From contig CAZPGO010000030.1 of NCBI GenBank assembly GCA_964586355.1, positions 1 through 32,000 on the forward strand: DNA of 32,000 nucleotides, in the 5' to 3' direction. The notes below the pieces were generated by a model. That model made no database searches and was not told the DNA's origin. It was given only the letters and a program-made list of their open reading frames with translations. Both the position numbers and the translations under genes were made by a program. Below, in pieces: positions 8,538 to 32,000 of the stretch. Source of the stretch: an uncultured archaeon (GTDB lineage Archaea; Iainarchaeota; Iainarchaeia; Iainarchaeales; CSSED10-239). Position 1 is the first letter of the stretch, and every line of letters begins with the position of its first letter.

Positions 8538-8551
8538 ATTCGTATTTTATT

Positions 8552-9628
8552 ATGGAAAAATTAGAAACCACTAGCACAGCTTTTTTTTACATCTCTAAAA
8601 AACTAGAAGAAGAATTGGTTGGAGGATATATTAATAACCTTCAAGAAATTGAACTTAAGTTTAAGGAAAATAAAATAGATGAATCAGTTAGAGGCATAAA
8701 AATAAAAATACACAAAAAACAAACAAAAGAATTAATAGCAACAGAAAAAACACTATTTCTAGCAAAACACAAAATCCCTGTTTTAGAAAAAAGCAAAGGA
8801 ATTTGTAATTTTCTAAAAAAGAAAATCTATAATCAAAAAATTCATGAAATAAAACAAGATAAAAATAACAGAGTGATTTATTTTAAATTAGATCAATATT
8901 ATTTAATATTTGAATTCTTTAGTAACTCTAATATCATATTAACAGACCTTGACTTTATTGTGATTACTTCAAAAAAACAAGAGTTTTGGAAAGATAGAGA
9001 GATAAAGGCAAAAAGAAAATATGATTTCCCTTTTTCTAATGACCTTAAAAAAAAAGAAGAAAAAGAAATAGAAAATAAAACAAAAGAAGAAATCATAAGA
9101 TATTTTGTAAAAAACTATAATATTTATCCGTGGTATTTAGAAGAAATATATAAAAAAACAGAAAAAATACTTCCAGAGATAAATAAGCTTTATGAATATA
9201 AAAACCCAAATATAAAAATAATAGATCACAAAGATCAAAAAATAATAGTGGTTGTAGAAAACAATAAAGAGAAAGACTTCTTTTTAGAAATAGAAAACCT
9301 TTATCTACATCAAGATACAAAAACAGAAGAAAAAAAAGAAAGCAAACAAATGCTAAAAATAAAAGAGATTCTAAAAAACCAAATAGATACCCAAAAAGAA
9401 TATGAAGAGAGTATGGAGCTCTTTCAAAAAGAAGGAGAACAAATCTACATATATTTTACTTTAATAAATCAAATTAATACTCAAATACAAATTGCAAGAA
9501 ATAAAAAAATAGATACACCTACAATAGAGAATAAGATAAATGAACAACTAAAAAAAACAAATTCTAAAATAAGTATAAAAGAAATAGATCTTAAAAATAA
9601 AACCTATAAACTAAAAATAGAAAATTAA
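8552..9628 (+). CDS. NFACT-N domain protein (Rqc2/NEMF/FbpA-like), apparently lacking the NFACT-R (DUF814) domain
   Basis: The N-terminus LEEELVGGYINNLQEI..., then VIYFKLDQYYLIFEFFSNSNIILTDLDFIVITS, fit the NFACT-N pattern (GNIIL.D). A coiled-coil tail follows. The protein ends at 358 aa with no DUF814-like segment. Confidence 0.45.
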   Translation: MEKLETTSTAFFYISKKLEEELVGGYINNLQEIELKFKENKIDESVRGIKIKIHKKQTKELIATEKTLFLAKHKIPVLEKSKGICNFLKKKIYNQKIHEIKQDKNNRVIYFKLDQYYLIFEFFSNSNIILTDLDFIVITSKKQEFWKDREIKAKRKYDFPFSNDLKKKEEKEIENKTKEEIIRYFVKNYNIYPWYLEEIYKKTEKILPEINKLYEYKNPNIKIIDHKDQKIIVVVENNKEKDFFLEIENLYLHQDTKTEEKKESKQMLKIKEILKNQIDTQKEYEESMELFQKEGEQIYIYFTLINQINTQIQIARNKKIDTPTIENKINEQLKKTNSKISIKEIDLKNKTYKLKIEN

Positions 9629-9645
9629 GATAATTAAATCTTAAT

Positions 9646-9918
9646 TTAGAAACCGCCGTCTTTTGCTAAAAGTTCTTTTTCATCAATAACGAAAACGTCA
9701 CTTACTGCAACAACACACTTGTAAGGCACTTCTAATAAGTTTCCTTGAACATCAAGTTGTTTTACAACTTTTGAAGTTGGGTCTACTTCTATTAATAAAG
9801 CCTCTACTTCTCCTGAGACCTCATTTACTAATAGATCTACTAAACGACCTAAATTATCTCCTCTATTTGTAATTAACTTTTTTGTTGCAAGTTGTCTAGC
9901 TATAGCATATTTGTACAT
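9646..9918 (-). CDS. PRC-barrel domain protein (CdpB-like size class)
   Basis: 90 aa. LITNRGDNLGRLVDLLVNEVSGEVEALLIEV...VPYKCVVAVSDVFVID is a typical stand-alone archaeal PRC-barrel pattern. Confidence 0.7.
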   Translation of the reverse strand: MYKYAIARQLATKKLITNRGDNLGRLVDLLVNEVSGEVEALLIEVDPTSKVVKQLDVQGNLLEVPYKCVVAVSDVFVIDEKELLAKDGGF

Positions 9919-13205: not shown

Positions 13206-14051
13206 ATGGATTCTAAAATAAAAATACTAATTATGTTTTTTGTAATAATATTAGCACTACCAAAAATATATTCACTAAAATTACTAGAACCAATCTATAC
13301 AGAAATAACTGGCTCAGAAATAGATATTGGAGTAGTTGCACCAGGCGAATTTTTTTTAATAAGCTTTTTACAAGATCAGGAAAATAAATTCACAGAAATT
13401 AGAGTTGCAGAAGAATCAAGAAACATAGCAAGTACAGAACTAACTCAATTTACTCCAGAAAGTATATTTACCACCATAAAAATTTCAAAAGAAATTAGTG
13501 GAAATCAAATATTAACACTAGAACTTATTTCAGAAAAAGAAACAAAAAAAATAAATCTTAATGTAAATGTAACAAACGATGTTATAAGTATAGTAACCCA
13601 AAACTATGAAACACTTAGTGAATATGGAAAACTTAAAGAAATAACTATTACAGTAATAAACAAATCAGTAACTACAAAACAAGTAACCCTAACCTCAAAC
13701 CTTCCAAAAAACTGGTTTGCTTATGAAAATGAAGTTATAGAACAAGATATAATTAGAACAGTACAACCAGTAAGCAAAACAGATATCAAATATAAATTTG
13801 TCCCTAAAGGTGTTGGAGACAAAGAATTTAGAATCTTTTTATATACAAAAAACGCACCAAAAGAAAACTATCTAAGATCCATTGAAAACATATTTGATGA
13901 TTTTAAAAGATCAGAAATAGATATTAAAATAAATATAATAAAAGATGTAAAAGCAATTTATAGTGCAAACCAATACTACTTTCCACTATATGGATTAAAT
14001 TCCTTACCTATTTATTTTTTTAATAATATTGTAAGAATACTAGATAAATAG
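13206..14051 (+). CDS. Secreted/surface protein with beta-sandwich-like (CARDB/COG1361-type) repeats
   Basis: N-terminal signal-like segment (KILIMFFVIILALPKIYS). Segments such as ITITVINKSVTTKQVTLTSNLP are typical of archaeal surface adhesin-like folds. No catalytic motifs were seen. Confidence 0.5.
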   Translation: MDSKIKILIMFFVIILALPKIYSLKLLEPIYTEITGSEIDIGVVAPGEFFLISFLQDQENKFTEIRVAEESRNIASTELTQFTPESIFTTIKISKEISGNQILTLELISEKETKKINLNVNVTNDVISIVTQNYETLSEYGKLKEITITVINKSVTTKQVTLTSNLPKNWFAYENEVIEQDIIRTVQPVSKTDIKYKFVPKGVGDKEFRIFLYTKNAPKENYLRSIENIFDDFKRSEIDIKINIIKDVKAIYSANQYYFPLYGLNSLPIYFFNNIVRILDK

Positions 14052-16309: not shown

Positions 16310-19300
16310 ATCAGAAAAAAAGAAACCAAAGTAATTTGGTTTTTCATAATTCTGTTTCTTTTTAGTTTTATATTTCTCTCTGGCTGTTTAGATAAACTAA
16401 ATGCTTTTGAAAAAGAAGTGTGTAAAAAAGTAACACATTTTTCATCAACCCAAATACCCTCTTGTCAAACACAAAACAGCTGTTATGAAAAAGTTGATGG
16501 GGTTATTAAAACACATGAGCTTTTACCAAAACATATAAATAATCAAATAAACCACTATAAAAATTATGTTGGGTCTAGTATATACTATTTTAATGAAAGC
16601 AAAAAAGATGTAGATAAAATACACTCCTTTTGCTCAGACTTTATAGATCCAAGCGTAATATTTAATGTTAATGATTTTTTCTTTAATATAAGAAACATCT
16701 TTTTCTACTTAGATCAAACCAATGTAAAAAGTATAGAACTGTTAACAGAATATGCAAGTTACTTACAAAATCAAGAAATAGAACTTATAACAGAAGAAGA
16801 TTTGTTTTTAGAGTATGCTTTGATTAATGAAAACATAAATGAAATAAAACAAGAAAGCAGTAATAACAACTATATAAACAATCTTAAAAAAAGCTCAAAA
16901 GAGGCAAACGAACTAGCAGAAAAATTTGGCTTTTCTGAGAGTTATTTATCTAGATTGAATTTCACTAATCTTATTTCATACTATCTTAAAATAAATGAAG
17001 AAGTACATCCAGAAAAAGAATTAGAAGTTCCTATTTTTTCAAACTCTATAGGGTTTATTGTATATAGAATAGCAAACTATGAGAATCTAAAAAGAATAAA
17101 TTTAAGATTAATAAATACAGACACATACAATCTATATTTATTTTTAGACAAAACCATAGGTTTTGAAAAATCAAACTTTGTAGAATTTAGTGAATTGCAT
17201 AATAGACTTATTGAAAATATAGAAAAAATCTCATTGAAAATAAACCAGCTAGAAAAAGAAATAGAAGAAAATTTAGAATATTTAAATTTAGAAAAAAAGA
17301 ATAACTACTTTCAATTAAAAGAAAAATACAGAACAGAAAAAATGGGTTTTGGAAGATATCTATATAACCTTAAAGAAATAAAAATAGAAATAGAAGAAAA
17401 CAAAGAAATAACAAAAACAAACAATTTAGAAAAAGCAAACAAAATAGAAAACTGCGACATAGAAATTAAAAAAATAGAAACCGAAAACTATTACTTGTTA
17501 GATCTTATTGAAAAATATAATTTAGAAAACAACTATTTAAAAAAAATAGAAATTTGCAATAATATTTTACTAAATTATGATGTTTCCGAGTGTATAAGCA
17601 AACTAAGAAAACTAAAAGAAGAAAATATTGATTATGATATAGATATAGAAAATATTACAGAAAAAAATTGTAAAGAAATAACATTTAACATAAATCTATT
17701 TTTAGAAAATAATGAAAAAATAAAATTATTTAATGAAATAATTTTAGAAATAGAAAAAACAATAACAGAAATAAAAAAATTTGAAGTAGACACCAAAACA
17801 GAACTTACTTTGATAAGATATACAACAGATATAAAAGAAGAAAAGAAAAAGGCCAATCACGAAAAAATAATAGAAATAGAAGAAAAAATAAAAGAATATG
17901 AAGAAAAAAAAGAAGATTTGAAAAAAATATTAAAAATAGAAATAGAAAAAGACTTTTTTAATAACGCAAAAATAAACTATATTGAAGAAGAATATTATTT
18001 GTGTTATTTTAATAAAACAAACTTTGCTTTTGAAAATGTTTGTTGTAATAATAAATATTCAAATATAGCATCAAAAACAAACACCCTAAAAATAACCACA
18101 ACAAACATCTGTGCAGACAAGATTTATTCAGCAAATAATTGTTACAAAATCAGTTATGAAAACCAAAAAGAAATAGAGACAAAAATCATAGAAATTACTC
18201 TTAATAAGAGTCTATTTGAAAGTGTGGTAAGTAACCAGGTGATTGGAATTCAAGACTCACTAAATCTTGGACAGATAGAATTAATTGATCGCCAAAACTA
18301 TTACTTTGATGACACCTTAGTACACTACCTAACAAAAGAACAAAACAAAATACTTTATTATAAAAAATTATTTGAATATTTTGTTGATAGAGAAATAATA
18401 GAAATATTAGAAGATATATTAATTATAAAAGAAGAATGGGTAATAAAAAACACTTCAGAACTAAATATTGATTCAGAAATAAAATTGTTTGAAATAGACC
18501 AAGAAGAGATAACTATTAAAGAAGAAGAGAGAAAAATAAATCACACAATCAAAAATAACTGGGTTTATATAACTGAAGAAATAAACAAAGATCAAGAAAA
18601 AAAATACACAATAAACAAACTAATTACTGTTGAGAAAGCAAAAGAAAGTGGCGAAGAAATAGTTTCAAATCTTTATCTTTTAAGAAACTCACAATTTTTA
18701 GAAATAAAAGAGCGGGCAGAAAAAATTGCTTTAGAAATTGATTTGGAAAATATTGTTGATGTTAATATTGAGAATCTTGAAAAAATAATAAACAAAAAAG
18801 AAGAAATAGAAAAATTAAAAGGAAAAGAAGAAAACTTTCTTGAAAGCTTAACCAATTATGAAATTTTAAAAACAGAGGTTAAAGAAAAACACCTAAATAA
18901 CACAGAAATAGAAGAAGAACTATCAAAACTAGATCAAGAAAAATATTTAGACCCAAATAAGATATTAAAAACATTAAATGAATTTATAATAGATTTTGAA
19001 GAAAAAACAGAATTAGAAAAAGAACAGAACTTTGAAGAAAATAATAAAAAAATCACAGAAATTAAAGAGAAACTAACAGAATTTGATTTACTAACCCTAG
19101 AAACAATATCAGAAATTAGTGAGTTAGACCTAACTAGTGATATTTCAAAAAATCTAGAAAACTTTAATAAAAAGATATCTAAAAAAGAAGAAGAACTAGC
19201 AAACAAAAATAAAGAACTTATCTTAGAATTTGAAAAAGAAATAGAAGATTATGAGCTTTATGAAACATTAGAAAAAGCAAGAATAGAATTTGAAGGAATA

Positions 19301-19828
19301 ACACTTACTGAGTTATATGACTCTAATATTATTCCTCCATTTACCTTGCAAGATATAGAAAGATTTGAAAAAAAAATAAAATTTAAAGATACTATTAGTT
19401 TTGGAAAAGAAATAGATTCTTTTAATGATGCTTTTTTTACTGAAGAATACACAACAGCAAATAAGAAACTAACAAAAAGCACAATAAATAAAATGAATGA
19501 AGCTCTAATAGAAAAAACCATATTTACAGAAGGTCTAGAAAATATAAAAAAAGAAGCTAAAAAAGAATATGAAAAATTCTCTAAAAACCTCTCAGAAGAA
19601 CAAAAAGAAGAAATTGAGTTACTAATAGAACAAGAAAGAGATCTACTTGCACTTTATTTATTAAAAAATAAAAAAATAAAAGAAAAAACAGAAATTACAA
19701 AAACAATTCAAATAATTGTGATCTTAGTAATAATAGCTCTATTTTATTTAGCATACCTCTTTTATAATAAAAAAACACCAACAATAACTAAAGAAGAGAA
19801 AAAAAGAAGAATTATTAGAAAATACTGA
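16310..19828 (+). CDS. Giant (~1170 aa) coiled-coil surface protein with a lipoprotein-type signal peptide, a central Cys-rich domain and a C-terminal TM anchor
   Basis: The ORF track starts at GTG 16418, but the frame is open from 16310. The extension encodes (I)RKKETKVIWFFIILFLFSFIFLSGC, i.e. a basic n-region, hydrophobic core and LSGC lipobox. The body is E/K/I/N-rich heptad sequence. A Cys cluster lies at about nt 17990-18180. The tail IQIIVILVIIALFYLAYLFY plus KKRRIIRKY ends at TGA 19826-19828. Confidence 0.7.
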   Translation: MRKKETKVIWFFIILFLFSFIFLSGCLDKLNAFEKEVCKKVTHFSSTQIPSCQTQNSCYEKVDGVIKTHELLPKHINNQINHYKNYVGSSIYYFNESKKDVDKIHSFCSDFIDPSVIFNVNDFFFNIRNIFFYLDQTNVKSIELLTEYASYLQNQEIELITEEDLFLEYALINENINEIKQESSNNNYINNLKKSSKEANELAEKFGFSESYLSRLNFTNLISYYLKINEEVHPEKELEVPIFSNSIGFIVYRIANYENLKRINLRLINTDTYNLYLFLDKTIGFEKSNFVEFSELHNRLIENIEKISLKINQLEKEIEENLEYLNLEKKNNYFQLKEKYRTEKMGFGRYLYNLKEIKIEIEENKEITKTNNLEKANKIENCDIEIKKIETENYYLLDLIEKYNLENNYLKKIEICNNILLNYDVSECISKLRKLKEENIDYDIDIENITEKNCKEITFNINLFLENNEKIKLFNEIILEIEKTITEIKKFEVDTKTELTLIRYTTDIKEEKKKANHEKIIEIEEKIKEYEEKKEDLKKILKIEIEKDFFNNAKINYIEEEYYLCYFNKTNFAFENVCCNNKYSNIASKTNTLKITTTNICADKIYSANNCYKISYENQKEIETKIIEITLNKSLFESVVSNQVIGIQDSLNLGQIELIDRQNYYFDDTLVHYLTKEQNKILYYKKLFEYFVDREIIEILEDILIIKEEWVIKNTSELNIDSEIKLFEIDQEEITIKEEERKINHTIKNNWVYITEEINKDQEKKYTINKLITVEKAKESGEEIVSNLYLLRNSQFLEIKERAEKIALEIDLENIVDVNIENLEKIINKKEEIEKLKGKEENFLESLTNYEILKTEVKEKHLNNTEIEEELSKLDQEKYLDPNKILKTLNEFIIDFEEKTELEKEQNFEENNKKITEIKEKLTEFDLLTLETISEISELDLTSDISKNLENFNKKISKKEEELANKNKELILEFEKEIEDYELYETLEKARIEFEGITLTELYDSNIIPPFTLQDIERFEKKIKFKDTISFGKEIDSFNDAFFTEEYTTANKKLTKSTINKMNEALIEKTIFTEGLENIKKEAKKEYEKFSKNLSEEQKEEIELLIEQERDLLALYLLKNKKIKEKTEITKTIQIIVILVIIALFYLAYLFYNKKTPTITKEEKKRRIIRKY

Positions 19829-19892
19829 TATTTTCTAAATAACAGATATTATTTAAAAAACATCTTATCAATAGTATATTAGTGAAGAATAT

Positions 19893-21056
19893 ATGAAAAA
19901 AATAATATTTTTAATAATTTCAATAATTATTATAACAAGTCCTATTTTTGGTCAAACAATAAGTGAGCTAAACTTTTTTGATATTGATCAAAGTAATTGG
20001 GTTATTCAAAAAGATCAAAATATTTGTAAAGATTACTATTTTGAAAAACTTACTGAAACTAAGGACTCAACATTTGTGCTTAATCTAAAATTAGAAAACT
20101 ATATAGTACCAAAAAAAGATGTTAGTATAGATATTTACCTAAATGATCTAAAAGGAGCAGCACTTAAAGAAGAAGAAATTAAAGTAAATAACATATTTAG
20201 ATTATATAACTTAAAAGAAAATAACAAACTAACAATCTGTGTAGAAAACAAATATCTTCCAAAAATGATTATTTCCAAAAAAAGCACAATAGGAAATTAT
20301 TTGCTACCAGAGTTTAAAGAAGAAAATTTTTATCAAATAATTGGAGAATATGAATTAACACAAACCATGATACCTGTAGAAGTACATATTAAAAACACAG
20401 GAGCAAAAGAAACAAACATAGAAATATATAATGCCACAGAAAAATATCTTGAAAACTCATTATTAGAAACAGTTTCAGGACATGCCAATTATTCTGGACC
20501 AATAGGCCCTGGAGAAGAAAAAATAATTAAATACTATATAAAAACTTTAGAAAACACAGACTATATGACGCCTAGAGCGATACTAAAATACACAGATGAA
20601 TTTGGAATAGATAGAGAGATATACACAGAAACAAAAATAATAACTGTTCTTAAAAATGATCAAAAATTAGATGCATTAATAGATATTGAAAACACAGTTT
20701 CATTAAATGAAAAAACTTATGGGAAAATAGTAATAAGAAACATCTCAGAAACAGATTTAAAAAACATAATAATAGAGCCAGAATTTACTGAAAACATTAC
20801 AATAAGTAAAAAAAAAATATCCCTGTTAAATAAATTTGATGTAATAGAAGTACCTTTTATCATAAGCAAAGAAGATCAAACAAAAACAAACTTAAGTTTT
20901 TCAATAAAATATACTACTTTAGATAATAGCAAACTAGAATTCAAAACAAAAGCAATAACACTATTTCCAGTAGAAAAAACAAACTACACCAATGAAATTA
21001 TTGGTATCTTATTACTTTTTTGTGTTTTAATATATATTTGGATAGTTAAACTTTAA
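19893..21056 (+). CDS. Surface protein with signal peptide, COG1361/CARDB-like beta-sandwich domains and a C-terminal TM anchor
   Basis: MKKIIFLIISIIIITSPIFGQ signal. PVEVHIKNTGAKETNIEIYN and GKIVIRNISETDLKNIIIEPEF are S-layer/CARDB-like strands. The C-terminal IIGILLLFCVLIYIWIV is a TM segment. Confidence 0.6.
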   Translation: MKKIIFLIISIIIITSPIFGQTISELNFFDIDQSNWVIQKDQNICKDYYFEKLTETKDSTFVLNLKLENYIVPKKDVSIDIYLNDLKGAALKEEEIKVNNIFRLYNLKENNKLTICVENKYLPKMIISKKSTIGNYLLPEFKEENFYQIIGEYELTQTMIPVEVHIKNTGAKETNIEIYNATEKYLENSLLETVSGHANYSGPIGPGEEKIIKYYIKTLENTDYMTPRAILKYTDEFGIDREIYTETKIITVLKNDQKLDALIDIENTVSLNEKTYGKIVIRNISETDLKNIIIEPEFTENITISKKKISLLNKFDVIEVPFIISKEDQTKTNLSFSIKYTTLDNSKLEFKTKAITLFPVEKTNYTNEIIGILLLFCVLIYIWIVKL

Positions 21057-22771: not shown

Positions 22772-25276
22772 TTATTCACCATTAAATTCACTTAGGGATT
22801 TTTGTTCTGAGTCGTAAATTACTGGTTTTTCTGTTTCTTGAGAATCTATAGTATTATTATCATTATTTTTTAATTTTAAGAAAGAATCATTTTCTAGATC
22901 TCTTTGAATAATTAAAGCTCTATTTATTACTGAGTTTTTAATACCAGCTAGTTTTGCAACCTGTATACCATAACTTTTGTTAATTCCACCTTTTTGAAGT
23001 TTGTGAAAGAAGTGAAGAGAGTCTCCTTCTTCTTTTGCAGTTACGTGAAAATTATTAATACCAGTATAAAGCTCTTGCAATTTATTTAAGATATGATAAT
23101 GAGTAGCAACAAGAGTTTTTGAACAAACACTATTATTTAGCTCTTCAACAATAGCCCAAGCAAGACTAAGTCCATCATATGTGCTTGTACCTCTTCCTAT
23201 TTCGTCCAAAATAACTAAACTATTGTTTGTGGAATTATTTAAAATATAAGCAACTTCTGACATTTCAACTAAAAAAGTGCTTTGCCCATGTATAATATCA
23301 TCAGAAGCACCTACTCTAGTAAAAACAGCATCAATCTCGCCTATTTTTGCATAACTTGCAGGAACAAAGCATCCACTAAGCCCTAAAATAACTCCGACAC
23401 AAACACTTCTCATATAACTGCTTTTACCTGCCATATTTGGACCTGTTATTATCATCGTTTTATTTGTTTTGGATAAATCACAATCATTTGGAATAAAATG
23501 TGTTAATTTTTCTATTATCGGGTGTCTTAGATCTTTAAAGATTAATTGATCTGAATCATCAATAATAGGTCTTACATAATCAAAATTATTACTTACAAAA
23601 GAATGTGAAAAATAAACATCTAATTTTGCAATCAAAGAAGAAAGCACTTTAATTTCTTCTTGATATTCTAAAGTTTCTTTACAAAGATTAGTAAATATTT
23701 CAAACTCTAATTCATTTCTTTTATCTTTTGCAGATAATATTTGTTGTTCTTTAAAAGAAAGTTCTTCAGTTGTATATCTTTCAGAATTTACTAAAGTTTG
23801 TTTTCTTATAAAATATTTTGGAACTTGATTTGCTTGGGATTTTGGAATTTCTATATAATATCCAAATATTTTATTAAATTTTAATTTTAAAGATTTAATA
23901 TTTGTTTCAGATTTTAGTTTTGCTTCAAATTCTGATAACCAAGAACTTGAGTTTTTTGTTATATTTATTAGATCATATAGTTCTTTAGAAAAACTTGGTT
24001 TTATGAAATTACCTTCTCTTAAACTAAAAGGAGGATCTTTTACAATTGTTTGTGATATTTTTTCTGTTAAGGTATCTAAACTTGGCATTTCTAATAATTT
24101 TCTTAAATTTTCTGATTTTGTTTCTAATAGGGTTTTTTTAATTAGAGGGATTATTTCTAGACTTTGTTTTAAAGATATAAGATCTCTTGCATTTGCATTT
24201 CCAAAACCAATTTTACAGATTATTTTATCAAGATCTCCAATATAAGAAAGATTATTTTTTAATTCCTCTTGTAGAAATAGATCTGCTCTTATCTCATCAA
24301 CAGAATCATGAATTTGTTTTAGTTTTTGTTTATCTGTTAATGGATGAAGTAGATCAAAATATAGTTTTCTATAACCCATTGCTGTTTTTGTATGGTTTAT
24401 TAAACTAAATAAACTATTTTTTATAGAATCATCTTTTAGATTTGAGACTAGTTCTAGATTTTTAATTGTTTTTCTATCTAGTTTTAAAAATTTAGATTTA
24501 TTGAATTTTTTAATAGTTTTAATATAATTAAGATCACAAAATTGTGTTTCTTTTAAATAATTTAGAGCATTATATGCAGAAATTATTGAAGCATCTTCTT
24601 CAAAACCAAAACTCTCTAATGATTTTAAATTAAAATGTGTTAGTAATTTTTCTGTTGATGTTTGTAGATCTGTGTTTATGGTATAATTAATTATTATATT
24701 GTTAATGTGTTTTTTTATTTTTTCAATATTTTTATAATCATCTAAAAGATTTTTAGTAACTATTAGTTCTTTTGGTTTTATAATTATTAATTGATCTAAT
24801 AAATTATCAAAGGAATCAATAACGCCTGATTTAAAATCTCCTGTAGTAATATCTACTATAGAAAAACCATAATTCTTTTTTGCTTTTACTATTGAACATA
24901 AAAAATTATTTTCATAATCATTATTAAAAATAGTGCTTGGAGTTATTATTCTTGTTACTGCTCTTTTAACTAATCCTTTTGCTAACTTAGGATCTTCTAT
25001 TTGCTCACAAATAACAACTTTTTTTCCTGCTTTTATTAATTTAGTAATATATGGATCTATTGAGTGATAAGGAATTCCTGCAAGTGGTGCTTCTCCAGTA
25101 CCTTTTCCTCTTTTTGTTAGAGTTATGTTTAATATCTGTGCAGCTATTTTTGCATCATCATAAAACATTTCATAAAAATCTCCTGCTCTAAAAAGCAATA
25201 CACCATCAGGATATTCTTTCTTGGTTTGAATATATTGCCTCATCATCGGAGTTAAGTTAGAATTTAGATCTTGCAT
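22772..25276 (-). CDS. mutS: DNA mismatch repair protein MutS (MutS1 type)
   Basis: The N-terminal mismatch-recognition GDFYEMF (Phe-x-Glu), Walker A GPNMAGKSSYMR, Walker B ILDEIGRGTSTYDG and THYH. 834 aa. Confidence 0.95.
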   Translation of the reverse strand: MQDLNSNLTPMMRQYIQTKKEYPDGVLLFRAGDFYEMFYDDAKIAAQILNITLTKRGKGTGEAPLAGIPYHSIDPYITKLIKAGKKVVICEQIEDPKLAKGLVKRAVTRIITPSTIFNNDYENNFLCSIVKAKKNYGFSIVDITTGDFKSGVIDSFDNLLDQLIIIKPKELIVTKNLLDDYKNIEKIKKHINNIIINYTINTDLQTSTEKLLTHFNLKSLESFGFEEDASIISAYNALNYLKETQFCDLNYIKTIKKFNKSKFLKLDRKTIKNLELVSNLKDDSIKNSLFSLINHTKTAMGYRKLYFDLLHPLTDKQKLKQIHDSVDEIRADLFLQEELKNNLSYIGDLDKIICKIGFGNANARDLISLKQSLEIIPLIKKTLLETKSENLRKLLEMPSLDTLTEKISQTIVKDPPFSLREGNFIKPSFSKELYDLINITKNSSSWLSEFEAKLKSETNIKSLKLKFNKIFGYYIEIPKSQANQVPKYFIRKQTLVNSERYTTEELSFKEQQILSAKDKRNELEFEIFTNLCKETLEYQEEIKVLSSLIAKLDVYFSHSFVSNNFDYVRPIIDDSDQLIFKDLRHPIIEKLTHFIPNDCDLSKTNKTMIITGPNMAGKSSYMRSVCVGVILGLSGCFVPASYAKIGEIDAVFTRVGASDDIIHGQSTFLVEMSEVAYILNNSTNNSLVILDEIGRGTSTYDGLSLAWAIVEELNNSVCSKTLVATHYHILNKLQELYTGINNFHVTAKEEGDSLHFFHKLQKGGINKSYGIQVAKLAGIKNSVINRALIIQRDLENDSFLKLKNNDNNTIDSQETEKPVIYDSEQKSLSEFNGE

Positions 25277-25302
25277 ATTTTACTCAAAGATTAATTATAA
25301 TA

Positions 25303-25376
25303 TGGGATCGGTGGGATTTGAACCCACGACACATAGGTCTTCAGCCTATTGCTCTCCCAGGCTGAGCTACGACCCC
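25303..25376 (-). tRNA. tRNA-Phe (GAA)
   Basis: The reverse complement folds as GGGGTCG/TA/GCTC-AGCCTGGGA-GAGC/A/ATAGG-CTGAAGA-CCTAT/GTGTC/GTGGG-TTCAAAT-CCCAC/CGATCCC/A. 74 nt, no encoded CCA. Confidence 0.95.
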
Positions 25377-25390
25377 ATAACATTTTAGAA

Positions 25391-25467
25391 TGGTGAGCCC
25401 GAGGGGATTTGAACCCCCGACACCAAGATTAAGAGTCTTGTGCTCTACCAAGCTGAGCTACGAGCCC
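25391..25467 (-). tRNA. tRNA-Lys (CTT), with genomically encoded CCA
   Basis: The reverse complement is GGGCTCGTAGCTCAGCTTGGTAGAGCACAAGACTCTTAATCTTGGTGTCGGGGGTTCAAATCCCCTCGGGCTCACCA. The anticodon arm is CAAGA-CTCTTAA-TCTTG. It ends in A-CCA. Confidence 0.93.
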
Positions 25468-25486
25468 ATACTATTTTAATATAATT

Positions 25487-25561
25487 TGAATCTGAGGGGA
25501 TTCGAACCCCCGACACCGGGATTAAAAGTCCCGTGCTCTAACCAGGCTGAGCTACAGATCC
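25487..25561 (-). tRNA. tRNA-Lys (TTT)
   Basis: The reverse complement is GGATCTGTAGCTCAGCCTGGTTAGAGCACGGGACTTTTAATCCCGGTGTCGGGGGTTCGAATCCCCTCAGATTCA. The anticodon arm is CGGGA-CTTTTAA-TCCCG. No encoded CCA. Confidence 0.95.
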
Positions 25562-25603
25562 AAAAGGTATATATTATATAATAAAATAGTATATACAATA
25601 TAT
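25562..25603. promoter_or_regulatory. Compact divergent promoter region (tRNA cluster/mutSL leftward, trm56 rightward)
   Basis: Only 42 nt, aaaaggtatatattatataataaaatagtatatacaatatat, separate the tRNA-Lys(TTT) 5' end from the trm56 ATG. Two TATA-like blocks sit about 25-30 nt from each gene start. This implies near-leaderless transcripts. Confidence 0.4.
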
Positions 25604-26149
25604 ATGACTCAAAATATTTATAAACTTAATATATTGAAATTAGATCATAGACCAGAAAGAGATAAAAGAATTACAACACATTGTGCACTTGTTTCTAGAG
25701 CTTTTGGGGCAGATTCTTTCTTTTTTTCTGGTATTGAGGATAAAAAGATCATAGAAAATATAAAAAATATTAATAAAACATGGGGCGGGGATTTTGGTGT
25801 TGAATATTGTAAAGGCCCTTTAAAATTTATTAAAGAATTGAAGTTAAAGAATTGGTATGTTATTCATTTGACTATGTATGGTTTAAACATAAATACTGAA
25901 ATAGAAAATATTTTAGAAATTAAAAAAAATAAAAATATATTAATAATAATTGGAGGACCTAAGGTTCCAAGAGAGTATTATGATATTTCAGATCTTAATT
26001 TAGCGGTGGGTAATCAGCCTCATAGTGAGGTTGCTGCTATTGCACTATTATTATATTTATTAAATCCTAAATATCTTACTAAAGAATTTAGTGATTCTAA
26101 AATAAAAATAGATCCAAATCAAAAATATAAAAAGGTTATTAATTTATAA
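25604..26149 (+). CDS. trm56: tRNA (cytidine56-2'-O)-methyltransferase aTrm56 (SPOUT)
   Basis: LDHRPERDKRITTHCALVSRAFGA matches the aTrm56 N-terminal signature (R.GHR..RD.RITTHV.L.ARAFGA). 181 aa. Confidence 0.85.
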   Translation: MTQNIYKLNILKLDHRPERDKRITTHCALVSRAFGADSFFFSGIEDKKIIENIKNINKTWGGDFGVEYCKGPLKFIKELKLKNWYVIHLTMYGLNINTEIENILEIKKNKNILIIIGGPKVPREYYDISDLNLAVGNQPHSEVAAIALLLYLLNPKYLTKEFSDSKIKIDPNQKYKKVINL

Positions 26150-26196
26150 TTTGTTAGTTACATAAATATTATTGTAAATTAAAAAAAGGATCAATA

Positions 26197-26787
26197 ATGA
26201 GTAAAACTGCAACCTTAAATAAATTAAAAAAAGATATCTTGAATGATAAAATAACAACACAATTTCTTGAACAAATTGCAGGACCTGTTGCACCAGATAT
26301 TATAAAAATTTATGGAAAAGATTCTGCTTTGTCTCCAGAAGATATATCTACTAAACTTAAGACTAAAATAACTTCTGTTAGATCTACATTAAATAGTTTA
26401 CATTACAGAGGAATTGCTTGTTATAAAAAAGTTAAAAATAATCAAAATTTGTTTGAATTTTTTTGGGAAATTAAGTTTAAAAAAATTATTGAACTTGTTT
26501 TAGAAACAGAAATAGAAAATATTAAAAAATTAGAAGAATTAATATATCTACAACAAGATAGAGATTATTTCTTTTGTCCTAAAAAATGTATTGAAGCACC
26601 TTTTGAAGTTGCTGCTGCTTATAATTTTAAATGCCCTAATTGTGGCAGAAATTTAGAAATGGCAGATACTAAAACTTATGTAGCATCTCTTAAAAGAAAA
26701 AAAACTATTGCCAAAAAAAACATAGAAAAATTACATAAAATTTTAGAGAATATAGAGGATAAAACAACTGGATATATTTGTGAATAG
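26197..26787 (+). CDS. tfe: Transcription factor E (TFE alpha)
   Basis: The N-terminal winged helix (ISTKLKTKITSVRSTLNSLHYRGI...FFWEI) plus zinc ribbon YFFCPKKC...FKCPNCG. The size and architecture are those of archaeal TFE. Confidence 0.85.
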   Translation: MSKTATLNKLKKDILNDKITTQFLEQIAGPVAPDIIKIYGKDSALSPEDISTKLKTKITSVRSTLNSLHYRGIACYKKVKNNQNLFEFFWEIKFKKIIELVLETEIENIKKLEELIYLQQDRDYFFCPKKCIEAPFEVAAAYNFKCPNCGRNLEMADTKTYVASLKRKKTIAKKNIEKLHKILENIEDKTTGYICE

Positions 26788-26891
26788 ATAATATAAAAAA
26801 AATCTATTTAAATATCTTTTTATTTATTATATACTTAGAATGTCTTATAGTTATTAAATAAAAAATACTCTTTTTATTTAAAATCTACTTT

Positions 26892-26966
26892 AGCGGGGTG
26901 GGGCAGCCTGGAGTGCCCGTCGGGCTCATAACCCGAAGGTCGATGGTTCAAATCCATCCCCCGCTA
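26892..26966 (+). tRNA. Initiator tRNA-Met (CAT), archaeal type
   Basis: AGCGGGG/TG/GGGC-AGCCTGGAGT-GCCC/G/TCGGG-CTCATAA-CCCGA/AGGTC/GATGG-TTCAAAT-CCATC/CCCCGCT/A. The A1:U72 pair and three G:C pairs closing the anticodon stem are initiator hallmarks. No encoded CCA. Confidence 0.9.
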
Positions 26967-26974
26967 TTTTTTTT
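26967..26974 (+). terminator. Oligo-T (T8) tract directly after tRNA-iMet
   Basis: TTTTTTTT begins at the first base after the discriminator. Archaeal RNA polymerase commonly terminates at such T-runs. Confidence 0.4.
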
Positions 26975-27201
26975 ACTATTTTTAATTATTAAATTTTGTT
27001 AAAATACATTATTAATACTGGTTATTTCACACCAAATCTTGGACATAAAGCACTTATATTAAAAAGATAAAAACAAGAGCAAAAAAAAACAAAATAATAT
27101 GATTAATCTATTTTTAACAGTTATTTTTCTTTTATTTTATTAAAAAACACTTTTTTTAACTTTTTTTAAGAAATAAAGCACAACAAGATCTTTTACATTT
27201 A

Positions 27202-27416
27202 GTAATTACCATAGAAATAACCGTAATTACTAACATATTTTCTTAAAAATTTATTTAATTATCATAGTTATACATAATAAAAAAATGTTATTTTTACTGC
27301 AAAACAAATATTTAGTAATTACTTTTGTCTTTTCTTAATAATTACCGTAATTACGAAAATAGCTCTAATATAATTACAGTAATTACAGAAGCATTTATAA
27401 TAATTACGGTAATTAC
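27202..27416. promoter_or_regulatory. Iteron/operator-like array of the palindrome GTAATTAC
   Basis: Perfect GTAATTAC at 27202, 27223, 27315, 27347, 27379 and 27409. ATAATTAC partners at 27338, 27370 and 27400 form three 17-bp units ATAATTAC-N-GTAATTAC. The last four perfect sites are spaced 32, 32 and 30 bp apart. Confidence 0.6.
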
Positions 27417-27426
27417 TATATATAAT

Positions 27427-28173
27427 ATGAACATAATAAAAAAAAGCATTGGTTTTATTCTAAAAAAAGTACATAAACTTGATAGATATTTTATAGATAA
27501 TAAAAAGATTCAAGAAATAGATAATAAAAATATAGATCATCTAAAAAATGAAAAATTAAAAAAAGAATATAACGAATTAATTAAAAAAGAAGAAAATAAT
27601 AAAATTAATCAAAATAAAGATTCTATAAATTACCAAAATACTGTAGATAATTTTACTAATAATTACACTAAAACACAATCAAGTAATTTTCAAAATACTA
27701 ATACATATTCTAATAATCAAAATTTTAGTTTAGAAAATTCTTCAAATAAAGAAATAGATGATTACTCTAATAAAGAAAGAAATAATTATTCTAATAATCA
27801 AAATAATTTAATAAATGAAAAACCCTTAAAAAATACTTATACAAAAACTGAATTAAATAAACTTGAAAATACTAAAATATATGATGTTAATAAAATAGAT
27901 TTTAATAAAATAAATACTATTTGGGATGTTATAAAAATAAAAGAAAACACACAAGCAGAACATATTATTAAATCATTGTCTGCAGATCAATGGATGGATA
28001 TTGAAGATATTAAAAGAAGAATAAAACTTGAATTTAATATAGAATATCAAAACGAAAAGAGTCTTTACCCTTACATAAAAACATTAACAGATATTAATTT
28101 AATTAAAGTAAATAATACTGGAAAAAAAAGAACTTGGAAAAAAAACATAATTTTAATTGAAAATAATAAGTAA
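27427..28173 (+). CDS. N/Q-rich low-complexity protein with a C-terminal winged-helix domain
   Basis: I start at ATG 27427. The TTG at 27325 in the ORF track reads through the repeat array. The middle part is N/Q/S/T/Y-rich (NYQNTVDNFTNNYTKTQSSNFQNTNTYSNNQNF...). The C-terminal WMDIEDIKRRIKLEF...SLYPYIKTLTDINLIKVNNTGKKRTWKK looks like an HTH plus wing. Confidence 0.55.
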   Translation: MNIIKKSIGFILKKVHKLDRYFIDNKKIQEIDNKNIDHLKNEKLKKEYNELIKKEENNKINQNKDSINYQNTVDNFTNNYTKTQSSNFQNTNTYSNNQNFSLENSSNKEIDDYSNKERNNYSNNQNNLINEKPLKNTYTKTELNKLENTKIYDVNKIDFNKINTIWDVIKIKENTQAEHIIKSLSADQWMDIEDIKRRIKLEFNIEYQNEKSLYPYIKTLTDINLIKVNNTGKKRTWKKNIILIENNK

Positions 28174-28234
28174 TTTTATTAGAAATTATTCTTCCTTTTA
28201 ATGCTAGTAGTTGCTTTTTATTTTATAATAATTA

Positions 28235-28816
28235 TTACTCTTTATTTTTTAGTAATAAAATATTATTATAAAAAGAAGATAAGATTTCTGAGTGTTCTTT
28301 TGATTTATTAAACCAATCTATATCTAAAACATAATTTATATCATTATCTAAATAATTAATATTAGATAAATTATTTAAAACAGCATAATTAACTTCATCA
28401 ATTATTTTTTTTAAAGAACCATCATGTGATATTATTAAATATTCTTTTAAAAAATCTTCTGTTGCTTTTATTATATTATTAATATCAATATCTATAACCT
28501 CTATTTTATAATCAACAGACCAAGAACCTTTTTCTTTCCAATTATGAGTTGGGTTAACTCCTGTATTAAAAAAATCTATTAATTTATGTTCTAATTTTAA
28601 TGGAATTACTACAGCATTTTTACCTGGTCTAATTAATGGCATATTACTTAAAACACCTTTTCTAAAATAAACATATTTTTTATTATTATTTTTAGAAACA
28701 TTTTGTTTATAACCATAAATAGATCTAAATATTCTTTGGTATGTATAACTTGAATGTTTAATATTATTTTCAAAAACAAACTTATATTTTATGTAGTTAG
28801 ATTTTATAGTTTCCAT
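28235..28816 (-). CDS. Hypothetical protein (ORFan to my eye)
   Basis: 193-aa ORF with a GGGGTG Shine-Dalgarno-like element about 9-14 nt upstream (cacccc on the plus strand at 28825-28830). No recognisable motifs. Very AT-rich codon usage. Confidence 0.5.
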   Translation of the reverse strand: METIKSNYIKYKFVFENNIKHSSYTYQRIFRSIYGYKQNVSKNNNKKYVYFRKGVLSNMPLIRPGKNAVVIPLKLEHKLIDFFNTGVNPTHNWKEKGSWSVDYKIEVIDIDINNIIKATEDFLKEYLIISHDGSLKKIIDEVNYAVLNNLSNINYLDNDINYVLDIDWFNKSKEHSEILSSFYNNILLLKNKE

Positions 28817-28876
28817 ATTACTGACACCCCATAGTTCCTGTATTATTTATTTATTATATATAAACATAGTTATGTA

Positions 28877-28916
28877 TAATAATAATAATAATAATATATA
28901 TATATATATATATATA
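28877..28916. repeat. Compound microsatellite (TAA)6(TA)11
   Basis: TAA x6 at 28877-28894 is directly followed by TA x11 at 28895-28916. It lies 61-100 nt upstream of the 28816 start codon, in the putative promoter region. Confidence 0.9.
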
Positions 28917-28968
28917 AATAAAATATAATTTAAAATTAAAAAAATAGAAATATTAAAAGAAGATTAAT

Positions 28969-29331
28969 TTATCTTCTTCCAGCTGTAGAATATTTACTTT
29001 TGTAACCAATATACTTTTTTCTTATTTTAGCATCATAAGTATTTTCAGGTTCTTCAGGTTTTTCTCTTATTACTTCTTTTTCTTGTATTGGTACATTACC
29101 TGAATTAATTAGTATAATATCATCAACAGATATTACTTTTTTATATGGTATACTATGCTCAGTCATAATCTTTTTAGCTTCTTTTTTAGAGTTAACCTTT
29201 AATGGTTGTGTTGTTATTGTCTCTATTATTCCTTGTTCTAAGTTTACAACTAAATCATATACTTTTCCTCTATATAAGGCATTAGTCTCATATAGATCCA
29301 TTCCAAATAATTTTGAGATTCTCATTGTCAT
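28969..29331 (-). CDS. PRC-barrel domain protein with a basic C-terminal extension
   Basis: ISKLFGMDLYETNALYRGKVYDLVVNLEQGIIETI...IPYKKVISVDDIILI is a PRC-barrel pattern. A GGAGG lies about 8 nt upstream (cctcc at 29339-29343). The tail is rich in K/R/Y. Confidence 0.6.
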   Translation of the reverse strand: MTMRISKLFGMDLYETNALYRGKVYDLVVNLEQGIIETITTQPLKVNSKKEAKKIMTEHSIPYKKVISVDDIILINSGNVPIQEKEVIREKPEEPENTYDAKIRKKYIGYKSKYSTAGRR

Positions 29332-29594
29332 TTTAATTCCTCCAAATAAATTAAATATTATTTATTAAAAACTATATCTAAAAGGTTATACAAAGCATTT
29401 ATATATATTACTTTTTTATTTTATATATAATTTAAATAGATAAGTTTGTTTTTAAAACCAATAATTAATAAATACTTACAAACAATATATAAATGTTATA
29501 GTTTTTTAGTTAATTTTATTAAGATTTTAATAAATTTAGAACTTTCTAAGCAATTTGTAAAATATTTTTAGTAATACAAGAAGTATGGGGTCTA

Positions 29595-30425
29595 TCATAT
29601 GTTATCTAAAGGATTTTGAATAGTTTTTAGTTTATTTGTATTAACTTTAGTATAAATTTGTGTGGTATTTAAGTTAGCATGTCCTAGTAGTTGTTGAATA
29701 TATCTAATATTTACATCATTTTCTAATAAATTAGTAGCAAATGAGTGTCTTAATGTATGTGGACTAATTTTTTTATCAATATTTGATTTACTAGAATATA
29801 TTTTTAAAAATTTTTGAATAGTGTCTACTGAAAGTGCATTACCTGAATTATTACAAAATAAATATTCTGATTTTATTTTTCTATTTTCTAAATATGTTTT
29901 ATAATCTTCTACCCATTTTTTAGAAAGAATAATTATTCTATCCTTATTTCCTTTTCCACTAATAACATTACCAGTAAACTCATCAAAATTTAAATTACTT
30001 ATTTTCATATTTACACATTCTGATATTCTAACACCTGTTGAAAACATAAATTCTACTATTAGTTTATTTCTAGTATTATCTATAACAGAAATAAGTTCTT
30101 TAATTTCTTTAGGTGTTAAGACAATTGGTATTTTCTTAGCTTTTTTTGGCAGTTTTATATTTATTAAAATATTACTTTTTAAAAATTCAATATAAAAATG
30201 TTTAATAGCAGAAAGTACAAGATTAAGTGTTGCAGATCCTACTTTTTTTTCTGTTTTTAAATATGATAAAAAATTTATAATATCATCATCATTTATTTTA
30301 TCTAGATCTTTTTTAACATATTCATAAAACATATTTAAATATATCATATATGTATCAATAGTTCTTTGACTATAACCCATAATATTTAGTTCATTTTTGA
30401 ATTTTTTTAATAGTATTTCTGACAT
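29595..30425 (-). CDS. Tyrosine site-specific recombinase, XerA/XerC/D-like
   Basis: The SAM-like N-domain (YSQRTIDTYMIYLNMF) and the catalytic set R (STGVRISE), K (GKGNKDR), HxxR (HTLRHSFAT), H (LGHANLNTT) and Y (QIYT). The 276 aa size is typical of archaeal XerA. It could be housekeeping or element-borne. Confidence 0.85.
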   Translation of the reverse strand: MSEILLKKFKNELNIMGYSQRTIDTYMIYLNMFYEYVKKDLDKINDDDIINFLSYLKTEKKVGSATLNLVLSAIKHFYIEFLKSNILINIKLPKKAKKIPIVLTPKEIKELISVIDNTRNKLIVEFMFSTGVRISECVNMKISNLNFDEFTGNVISGKGNKDRIIILSKKWVEDYKTYLENRKIKSEYLFCNNSGNALSVDTIQKFLKIYSSKSNIDKKISPHTLRHSFATNLLENDVNIRYIQQLLGHANLNTTQIYTKVNTNKLKTIQNPLDNI

Positions 30426-30739
30426 ATAAATAATAATAGCTCTATTTTCTTTATAATCTTATTGTTTTAAGCCGAAAAAGTGCTTTGTTTTTCAAACCTT
30501 TTTGACTCTTTTTTTTTCTAGTTTTTTAGTTTTTTTAATAAATTATATTAAACAAGTGTTATTTTGGCTTGTTTTATTTATACATAAATTTATTTTTTAG
30601 ATCTTTTTTTCTTCTAACCTTTTATATTTTCTAGCTTTTTTCTAATTTATACATAAGTTAGTAAAACAAACAAAACCACTTATAAAATGATTGACCTTCT
30701 ATTAATTATACTTTTTTTAAAAAAAGAAATATAATGTGA

Positions 30740-32000
30740 TCAAATATAAATCCCAAATACATACTCAACAGAAAAGATGAAAAAATCACTTATAATATTT
30801 ATAAAATCAAATTAGCAATATTAAAAGCACTTGATGCAATTGAGAATCCTGATATAGATCTTGCTGATTTTATTACTAAAAAAGTTGATACTGTTTTAGT
30901 TAATGAATATTTTAATAAAAAGATTTTACCTAAGATTGATGATATTCAAAATATTATTGAAGATGTTTTAATTAAAGAAGGATTAACTAAATTAGTAAAA
31001 GCTTATGTTATTTATAGAAAACAACATGATGATTTTAGGCAATTTTCTAAATTAATAGATAGTGTTAATGCTGTTGAAAGTTACATAAACATTTCTGATT
31101 GGCAAGTAAAAGAAAATAGCAATATGGATTATTCATTACAAGGTCTAAATAATTATTTATCTACTAAAATAATTTCTGATTATTGGATAAAAAAAATATA
31201 TCCTCCAGAAATAAAGGAAGCACACGAAAAAAGGCAATTACATATACACGATCTAAGCACATTAGGACCTTATTGTGTAGGTTGGGATCTACAATTTTTA
31301 TTAAGAAATGGTTTTAAGGGAGGTCTTGGTAAAATTGTTGCATCTGCTCCAAAACATTTTGATATTGCATTAGGTCAAATAGTTAATTTCATTTATACTC
31401 TTCAAGGAGAAGCAGCAGGTGCTCAAGCTTTTAGTAATTTTGATACTCTTTTAGCTCCTTTTATTTTTTATGATAATCTGGATTATAAAAGAGTAAAGGC
31501 AGATCTTGAAAAATTTATTTATAATATGAATGTTCCAACAAGGGTTGGATATCAAACTCCATTTTCAAATATAACCTTAGATCTAACAATACCATCAACT
31601 CTAAAAAACGAATCAGTAATAATTGCAGGAAAACCTATGGACAAAACCTATGGGGAATTCCAAGAACAAGTTGATATGTTTAATAAAGCAATTTTAGAAA
31701 TTTTTTATGAAGGTGATGCTGGAGGAAACATGTTTTCATTTCCAATACCTACAATAAATGTTACTAGTGACTTTAATTGGGATAGTGATCTTGCAAATAA
31801 AATAATTGATCTAACCATAAAATATGGTACCCCTTATTTTGCAAACTTTGTAAATTCTGATATGAAACCAGAAGATGCTAGAAGTATGTGTTGTAGATTA
31901 AGATTAGATAATCGTGAGCTTCAAAAAAGAGGAGGAGGGTTATTTGGATCTAATCCTCTAACAGGATCTATTGGTGTTGTAACAATTAACCTTGCACAGA
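30740..32000 (+). CDS. nrdD: Anaerobic ribonucleoside-triphosphate reductase (class III), N-terminal part; the 3' end is beyond the window and the start codon is unresolved
   Basis: Frame 2 is open from 30740 to the window end. It encodes an ATP-cone (YILNRKDEKITYNIYKIKLAILKAL...AYVIYRKQ). This is followed by the class III core (LHIHDL, YCVGWDL, QGEAAGAQAFSNFDT, RSMCCRLRLD, GGGLFGS). The first in-frame ATG/GTG/TTG is not until 31124. Confidence 0.9.

Follow-up and report, generated by a model that had tools for sequence, protein, structure and literature searches.

The 32,000-nt window analysed here, i.e. the whole stretch presented above, is chromosomal DNA of an archaeon of the Iainarchaeota/Diapherotrites (DPANN) with a G + C (GC) content of ~25%, and encodes aTrm56, TFE-alpha, EF-1alpha, S10, RtcB, MutS/MutL, anaerobic ribonucleotide reductase and four tRNAs. 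It contains an array of the 8-bp palindrome GTAATTAC, located in an AT-rich intergenic region (GC 17.5%) immediately upstream of a gene for a winged helix-turn-helix (wHTH) protein. The genes are arranged in the order mutL-mutS-(tRNAs)-trm56-TFE-(tRNA-Met)-array-wHTH, followed on the opposite strand by genes for a 193-aa protein and a PRC-barrel protein and, in most cases, xerA (Table 1). The same order, or its core TFE-array-wHTH-193aa-PRC, recurs in 33 genome loci whose GC content ranges from 21 to 47%.

Seven exact copies of GTAATTAC are present in the window, six of which start at positions 27202, 27223, 27315, 27347, 27379 and 27409; together with three ATAATTAC partners, they occupy 27202–27416, and the initial annotation, made from the sequence of the window, had placed all of these sites correctly to the base. 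Under dinucleotide-preserving shuffling, 0.73 ± 0.84 copies of GTAATTAC are expected per 32-kb window, for which the annotation had given a rough figure of about one copy, and seven or more copies were reached in 0 of 100 shuffles; the local enrichment is ~1000-fold. The seventh copy, at 11611, lies, as described, inside the SPFH/Band-7 gene, in a hydrophobic coding stretch (FFILIIVITIFF) that is probably membrane-spanning. We considered this copy as a second target and rejected it on account of its coding context and its consistency with chance. GTAATTAC was not found in the other promoters of the window.

The compound sequence ATAATTAC-N-GTAATTAC occurs exactly three times in the window, and the three resulting 17-bp units vary, in agreement with the annotation, only at their centre (C, A and G). 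Each unit contains a perfect 15-bp palindrome, TAATTAC-N-GTAATTA, a refinement that had been missed. The units are palindromic rather than directional, and the repeated word is the 8-bp palindrome. The spacings of 32, 32 and 30 bp between the perfect palindromes from 27315 onwards and the 10-nt gap separating the array from the ATG at 27427 were also given accurately. An open reading frame (ORF) with a TTG start codon at 27325 had been dismissed as a mere translation of the repeats, and rightly so: the N-termini of the closest homologues (P0002, P0003 and P0006) align at ATG 27427, which is the real start of the wHTH gene.

Table 1 Features of the array locus and of related loci (coordinates refer to the window unless a locus is named; a dot marks features without strand)
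Feature	Coordinates	Strand	Remarks
Distal pair of GTAATTAC	27202–27209, 27223–27230	.	21 bp start to start, ~two helical turns
TACATAA element (consensus tTATACATAA)	27271–27277	+	Between distal and proximal site clusters
Solo GTAATTAC	27315–27322	.	First site of proximal cluster
Unit 1, ATAATTAC-C-GTAATTAC	27338–27354	.	15-bp palindrome 27339–27353
Unit 2, ATAATTAC-A-GTAATTAC	27370–27386	.	15-bp palindrome 27371–27385
Inferred TATA box TTTATAAT	27394–27401	+	Centre ~29 nt before ATG
Unit 3, ATAATTAC-G-GTAATTAC	27400–27416	.	Proximal candidate operator; 15-bp palindrome 27401–27415; between inferred TATA box and ATG
248-aa wHTH protein gene	27427–28173	+	Winged helix nt 27919–28161, residues ~165–245
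193-aa protein gene	28235–28816	-	Convergent with wHTH gene; YxYQKxFRSIYGYxQNV motif
PRC-barrel protein gene	28969–29331	-	Pfam PF05239
Tyrosine recombinase XerA gene	29595–30425	-	NCBIfam NF040815 recomb_XerA_Arch, 273 bits, cut-off 220
trm56-embedded sites	L005 4188–4234, L008 4025–4071, L010 4249–4295, L009 4170–4185		Peptide GIITVITKT...GGNYQ in L005, L008 and L010

The array is conserved at orthologous loci. All 33 genome loci, which were found via the protein, carry GTAATTAC upstream of the wHTH gene, and in 32 of them the nearest copy lies no more than 56 nt from the ATG (221 nt in the exceptional locus L025). At least four metagenome loci found via the motif itself encode the wHTH protein with the same synteny. 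The underlying metagenome scan for triplets of GTAATTAC sites, with at least 120 matches, does not show whether arrays exist elsewhere in the genomes; among the matches listed, most are unrelated repeats based on longer palindromes such as AGAGTAATTACTCT, and four are orthologous loci. A scan of the complete genome of Ca. Forterrea recovered a single locus (L012). Across the 33 genome loci and the window, 154 out of 233 GTAATTAC sites are located within 500 bp upstream of the ATG. When anchored on the last site, the main clade displays the pattern ...ATATAATTAC-N-GTAATTAC-(13 nt)-TTTA(A/T)AATAATTAC-G-GTAATTAC-TATAT..ATG, in which (18 main-clade loci) the unit columns are 98–99% identical, the spacer is 80% identical, mostly owing to the TATA-like box, and the central N is variable; the flanks of the units show a weak R...Y preference. 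Relatives with a GC content of 41–47% retain one to three exact copies, the last of which directly follows a AAAATATAA box and precedes the ATG by 13–16 nt. A distal pair or triplet of sites with a spacing of 20–22 bp recurs in L002–L009, and in orthologues the counterpart of the solo site at 27315 precedes the unit that follows it by 32 or 41 bp.

Two of the compared contigs carry unexpected taxonomic labels. L002 (JAQUUM010000105.1) is filed under a metagenome-assembled genome (MAG) of Bacilli and L011 (NZ_JAEDAM010000051.1) under Candidatus Vampirococcus lugosii; both show the archaeal trm56-TFE-wHTH synteny together with the array, and L011 has mutS as well. Almost certainly, the two contigs stem from an Iainarchaeota-like archaeon and were binned there as contaminants. 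Two other AT-rich metagenome contigs, L114 and L141, are dense in longer palindromes, AGAGTAATTACTCT and AATAGTAATTACTATT, built around the same core; no gene of the wHTH family is present in the stretch examined, and these arrays are probably unrelated palindromic repeat elements.

The spacing of the sites is strictly quantised, at ~10, 21, 31, 41, 51 and 62 bp. The 88 spacings of up to 62 bp between adjacent sites fall exclusively within 9–13, 18–22, 30–33, 39–41, 50–51 and 61–62 bp, with a resultant length of 0.78 at a period of 10.3 bp, such that the placement of sites on one face of the helix, first proposed for the window, holds across the orthologues. Which multiple is used (21, 31 or 41) differs by lineage. 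Because lineages change the multiple yet stay in register, the pattern argues for selection on helical phase, with the proviso that the loci are not phylogenetically independent.

The proximal site keeps its position relative to the putative promoter. In most orthologues, the TATA-like box takes the form TTTAAAAT, and a conserved TTTA(A/T)AAT lies directly 5′ of the proximal unit, overlapping the proximal palindrome; other genes of the window have TTTAWATA-like boxes 30–45 nt before their ATG. No Shine-Dalgarno sequence is present between TTTATAAT and the ATG at 27427. In archaea, the usual distance between the TATA box and the transcription start site (TSS) is ~26–27 nt. Since the TATA-like box is centred ~29 nt before the ATG, the mRNA of the wHTH gene is likely to be leaderless or nearly so, with a TSS only a few nucleotides away from the ATG. 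In that case, the proximal palindrome would occupy the stretch between the 3′ edge of the TATA box and approximately −10, the classic placement for an archaeal repressor that blocks the recruitment of TBP/TFB or of the polymerase. The last GTAATTAC ends 7–16 nt before the ATG in 27 out of 34 loci, the proximal consensus reads TTTAaAATAATTACgGTAATTACtatat..ATG, and in the main clade the ATG follows 15–19 nt after the start of the proximal site.

The wHTH protein belongs to a small, uncharacterised family that is confined to Iainarchaeota/Diapherotrites. A profile search against 1.84 billion proteins retrieved 37 representatives (at 50% identity) of 75–252 aa, none with fused domains; 81 homologue clusters were found. 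All homologues are publicly named "hypothetical protein", and relatives originate from MAGs labelled archaeon, Candidatus Iainarchaeum/ainarchaeum, Diapherotrites or Ca. Forterrea multitransposorum. AlphaFold2 modelling (81 homologues, model m568e67159123) bears out the C-terminal winged helix that the initial annotation had recognised: residues ~165–245 form a helix-helix-helix-beta-hairpin wing with a predicted local distance difference test (pLDDT) score >90. They are preceded by a disordered Asn/Gln-rich linker (residues ~56–152, pLDDT <50) and, at the N-terminus, by a basic amphipathic helix (residues 1 to ~20). The protein has one winged-helix domain, no ATPase and no ligand-binding domain. 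It produced no Pfam, NCBIfam, PHROG or PDB-sequence (profile) match, and Foldseek searches against the PDB retrieved generic wHTH folds only (Fur, ArsR/SmtB such as CzrA and NolR, PadR and BlaI; E ~1e-3). Given the empty PDB profile search, the generic structural matches and the retrieval of only 37 short relatives, without fusions, from the 1.84 billion proteins, kinship of the domain to a named family was rejected.

The C-terminal 90 aa of the wHTH protein are 70–82% identical among species in which TFE is only 56–71% identical. The segment spanning the predicted recognition helix, EY(K/Q)NEKSLYPY(I/L)KTL, is identical in 10 of 11 diverse loci, including all those of high GC content; two residues differ in the most divergent locus, L034, and the DNA motif is unchanged in all 11. 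In addition, the first ~14 residues constitute a hydrophobic/basic amphipathic segment (e.g., MGLFDKIKSLFSKK) with a net charge of +1 to +7 in all 34 sequences. The pattern is suggestive, but the hydrophobic moment of this segment exceeds that of shuffled sequences in some cases only and is not significant in most single sequences.

We consider it probable, if well short of certain, that the adjacent wHTH protein binds the array cooperatively and in helical phase and represses its own leaderless promoter. The array would represent the cognate site cluster of the protein encoded directly downstream, with the 8-bp palindrome, (R)GTAATTAC(Y), as the recognition unit, doubled near the promoter into TAATTAC-N-GTAATTA. 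Because the proximal palindrome would begin inside the TATA box and end ~11 nt before the leaderless ATG, its occupation is expected to exclude TBP/TFB or RNA polymerase and thereby to switch the gene off, resulting in negative autoregulation. Upstream sites in helical register (~10.3 bp × n) would allow several dimers to bind cooperatively on one face of the DNA, and possible looping to the distal pair might render the response sharper. A cooperative operator for the downstream protein was among the readings offered by the initial annotation. The comparative anatomy of the locus, namely its recurrence in 33 genome and at least four metagenome loci, the position of the proximal site and the conserved recognition helix, supports this reading, whereas binding itself is what we infer from these features.

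Both the protein family and the DNA word are new; the proposed mode of action is already known. Archaeal wHTH/HTH autorepressors, such as MDR1, LrpA, Phr and members of the TrmB family, have operators that overlap or abut the TATA box and the TSS. The system described here resembles them in its palindromic sites between the putative TATA box and the predicted leaderless start and in the expected exclusion of TBP/TFB or RNA polymerase. However, it has no sequence kinship with these proteins, displays nine phased sites in 215 bp rather than one or two, and differs further in its 8-bp palindromic unit, the N-terminal amphipathic helix, the long disordered linker and the lack of a ligand-binding domain. 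In the MetJ/met-box system, tandem 8-bp palindromes likewise abut (here they are 9 bp apart within a unit) and neighbouring dimers bind them cooperatively, as is proposed here, but MetJ is a ribbon-helix-helix protein rather than a wHTH protein, and most sites of the present array are two to four helical turns apart.

Several observations weigh against autorepression as the whole explanation. For a wHTH dimer, a palindrome of 8 bp is a short site, and no more than 8 bp separate the half-sites within the 15-bp palindrome. A plain repressor would have no evident use for the conserved basic amphipathic N-terminus. Over 30 kb of window sequence, no second target promoter was seen, an odd finding for so conserved a regulator. 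Finally, some lineages contain additional clusters of sites where a simple operator is not expected, i.e. within the coding sequences of trm56 and of the wHTH gene, between convergent 3′ ends and upstream of mutS. Sites outside the promoter show a second, weaker enrichment: 31 are located at −2500 to −1000, as compared to 2 at +1000 to +6000, and 28 lie within the wHTH gene or shortly past its end. At a distance of 1.65 kb upstream from the wHTH gene, trm56 harbours in its coding sequence a full 17-bp unit and a further site 31 bp on in L005, L008 and L010; in L009, the unit ATAATTAC-N-GTAATTAC is intact and the second site is one base off. The trm56 gene of the window is without embedded sites. 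Five sites 18–23 bp apart lie upstream of mutS in L011, three sites are found in L012, L013 and L015 where the wHTH and 193-aa genes converge, between their stop codons, and in seven loci the wHTH gene itself carries in-frame (S/G/R)-N-Y sites from +73 to +115. Codon choice in this gene is skewed towards the motif: SNY is encoded by AGTAATTAC in 7 of 10 cases, compared to 6 of 25 in other ORFs, and TAC accounts for 34% of Tyr codons versus 15% elsewhere. The window itself contains no such satellite clusters and, in 30 kb, no site beyond the chance copy at 11611. The satellites could be auxiliary operators for looping or part of a larger centromere- or boundary-like domain.

An unlikely alternative is that the array is a centromere-like, anchoring or domain-boundary site and the wHTH protein is mainly architectural, with autoregulation as a by-product of the promoter-overlapping sites. 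A large phased nucleoprotein complex would then mark this one locus next to xerA and the PRC-barrel gene. By analogy, such a complex might be tethered to the membrane via the N-terminal amphipathic helix, as in Noc and RacA, or might stall SMC, as in the case of TrmBL2. The lineage-specific sites outside the promoter, in coding DNA, at convergent 3′ ends and 1–2.5 kb upstream, would find an explanation here, as would the codon choice favouring the motif, the net-basic amphipathic N-terminus of all 34 sequences, with a disordered linker behind it, and the lack of another target in 30 kb; furthermore, motif and protein are conserved as strongly as in ParB/parS-type systems. There is also a precedent for a wHTH protein forming a boundary at a single archaeal locus, that of TrmBL2 (PMC11840125). 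PRC-barrel proteins act in archaeal cell division, and the neighbouring XerA and PRC-barrel genes fit a chromosome/division theme, albeit only loosely; their vicinity is perhaps coincidental, given that PRC-barrel genes have many neighbourhoods. On the other hand, no ParA/SegA-type NTPase domain (ParA/ParM/SegA) is present in the window or among the conserved neighbours, the hydrophobic-moment test falls short of significance in most single sequences, and membrane binding is no more than a resemblance.

As in ParR/parC of R1, omega, ParB/parS, SegB and AspA, a short-repeat array lies beside the gene of its presumed binder and doubles as a predicted operator. The extra sites in nearby coding DNA recall parS, located within spo0J, and the DNA word is very strongly conserved, as in these systems. 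In contrast to these centromere binders, however, there is no adjacent partner ATPase or GTPase, and the wHTH protein is unrelated by sequence to ParB, ribbon-helix-helix proteins and AspA. TrmBL2 at the dif boundary of Thermococcus kodakarensis and Noc at its NBS sites in Bacillus form large complexes of architectural function at defined loci, and the comparison with them is pure analogy; the same applies to the combination of an N-terminal amphipathic helix with site-specific DNA binding in Noc. It is rather unlikely that the wHTH protein acts chiefly as a device by which the Iainarchaeota lineage marks its chromosome, and not as a transcription factor. In such a device, a membrane- or partner-binding N-terminal amphipathic helix would be connected through the flexible linker to the winged helix, around which a large, phased complex would assemble at a single conserved locus beside xerA and the PRC-barrel (cell-division-type) gene, with satellite clusters in coding DNA in some lineages.

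Autorepression by the wHTH protein also has to be weighed against the improbable case that another factor, for example the 193-aa neighbour or a general factor, binds the motif and that the wHTH gene is merely its target. The motif is assigned to the wHTH protein by adjacency and co-conservation only, and the 193-aa protein is equally syntenic. Nevertheless, the wHTH protein is the sole product of the locus with a recognisable sequence-specific DNA-binding fold, and L034 has kept its array and wHTH gene, while no 193-aa gene was detected in the 4.9 kb available.

More improbable still is a secondary chromosomal origin with a lineage-specific winged-helix initiator, akin to Sulfolobus oriC3/WhiP or to an anciently captured iteron replicon. 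The layout resembles that of an iteron replicon, with phased repeats upstream of the putative initiator gene and inverted repeats over its promoter, and the intergenic region is AT-rich. In Ca. Forterrea, the locus (764–776 kb of 839.6 kb, CP045477.1) would be ~65–75 kb away from the origin, provided that the record begins at it, as the Forterrea paper implies; two origins so close together would not be told apart by coarse GC skew. Against an origin stand the absence of Orc1/Cdc6, MCM or primase genes nearby in the window or in L012, a GC skew that does not change sign across the array, and a protein with a single winged-helix domain and no ATPase. Although repeats in an AT-rich intergenic region beside a winged-helix gene are common to this locus, Sulfolobus oriC3/WhiP and origins composed of Orc1/Cdc6 and origin recognition boxes (ORBs), the locus lacks an AAA+ initiator and the ORB consensus, and in the one complete genome the array is not at the cdc6-adjacent origin. 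The suggestion in the initial annotation of an ORB-like element is not borne out: no Orc1/Cdc6 (AAA+) domain was detected in the scanned ORFs of the window or within ±6 kb of the locus in the complete Ca. Forterrea genome, and the ORB-like sequence TTCCAGTGGAAAC, allowing up to three mismatches, matched 6 times in the window, with 7.4 matches expected, and not at all in 26968–27426. The single, skew-defined origin of Ca. Forterrea adjoins a cdc6 gene (PMC5905446).

The same annotation had also considered plasmid or viral iterons. The array does share with the sites of the iteron initiators RepA, RepE and pi the phased repeats before a winged-helix gene, the inverted copies over the gene's own promoter and a spacing of 21–22 bp, or about two helical turns; it differs from them in being chromosomal, in the presence of one winged-helix domain instead of two, in its palindromic 8-mers as opposed to direct repeats of 17–22 bp, and in the lack of a replication gene and of family members in plasmid and virus collections. 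That the array represents iterons of a plasmid or virus integrated at tRNA-Met with its own integrase, as might be suspected from the preceding tRNA-Met gene, a GC content of 17–21% over 27–31 kb and a tyrosine recombinase 2 kb away, has a close to negligible chance of being correct and was rejected: no att-like direct repeat brackets the region, the supposed integrase is the chromosomal XerA, the block is syntenic phylum-wide, and the protein family is absent from IMG/VR (protein-pattern scan), PLSDB and GenBank phages (tblastn) and PHROGs. We thus regard the locus, in view of its recurrent gene order, the identity of the recombinase and the absence of att-like repeats, as a conserved chromosomal locus rather than a mobile element. 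A viral or plasmid origin was likewise rejected on the same database searches; the 39 viral contigs with three GTAATTAC in succession are unrelated tandem repeats of fixed period and lack the gene. Of 89 viral contigs with the 17-bp unit, 88 have it a single time and the 89th has one overlapping pair, consistent with chance.

To our knowledge, almost no regulators of DPANN archaea have been characterised experimentally, and the chromosome biology of these organisms is unknown. The locus offers a testable protein-DNA pair: a domain of 90 residues and an exact 8-bp word, together with a predicted geometry of the promoter and an array known in 37 natural variants. If the protein is an autorepressor only, it would define a new wHTH family and provide a clean archaeal example of cooperative operators in helical phase. 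Should more lie behind the satellite clusters and the N-terminal helix, DPANN archaea would have in this locus their first candidate system for site-specific chromosome organisation; were it to mark the chromosome, it would be the functional counterpart in archaea of ParB/parS, Noc/NBS or a boundary of the TrmBL2 type, with an unrelated fold and no partner ATPase.

The window and 22 related loci, but not the divergent clades, have a further conserved element upstream of the wHTH gene, TACATAA, at −120 to −230 relative to the ATG, which may serve as a second promoter or as the site of another factor. A dif site for the neighbouring XerA was considered and rejected, since no 11-6-11 inverted repeat is found around TACATAA or in the array, as judged by eye against the dif site of P. 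abyssi (ATTGGATATAA-TCGGCC-TTATATCTAAA, with two 11-bp imperfect inverted arms and a 6-bp spacer). An Rfam search for structured RNA in 25200–30800 returned tRNAs only.

Downstream of the wHTH gene, the 193-aa gene is present in 28 out of 33 genome loci; of the five exceptions, four end too soon downstream to be judged, and L034 is arranged differently. No fold in the PDB (best E 0.17) or in BFVD matches the confident AlphaFold2 model of the 193-aa protein (pLDDT 86, predicted template modelling score 0.82), and the sequence gave no hit in Pfam, NCBIfam or PHROG; the protein may therefore represent a new fold. Between the 193-aa and PRC-barrel genes lies a (TAA)n/(AT)n microsatellite (28878–28918). 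The PRC-barrel protein is 84–91% identical in close relatives and shows a weak match to the PRC-barrel structures 8qzo and 8onw; a second PRC-barrel protein, of 90 aa, is encoded 18 kb upstream of the array (9646–9918, minus strand). The xerA gene, ~2 kb downstream of the array, is syntenic in most loci.

Two minor observations concern other parts of the window. The conserved N-terminus of the anaerobic ribonucleotide reductase starts with ATG-TGA (30734–30739), with an in-frame TGA as codon 2, owing to which gene callers place the start 130 codons later, at 31127; in L001 (5858–6010), the glycyl-radical C-terminus (RVVGY) of this enzyme constitutes an ORF of its own, of 50 aa, behind a stop codon. 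Since TGA serves as an ordinary stop codon in 2 of 25 genes of the window, nothing points to global recoding. Lastly, ORFs of 354, 358, 281, 1136 and 387 aa without a Pfam match are located within 7473–9628, 13206–14051 and 16418–21056, and the 1136-aa ORF may encode a giant surface protein of the type found in DPANN genomes.

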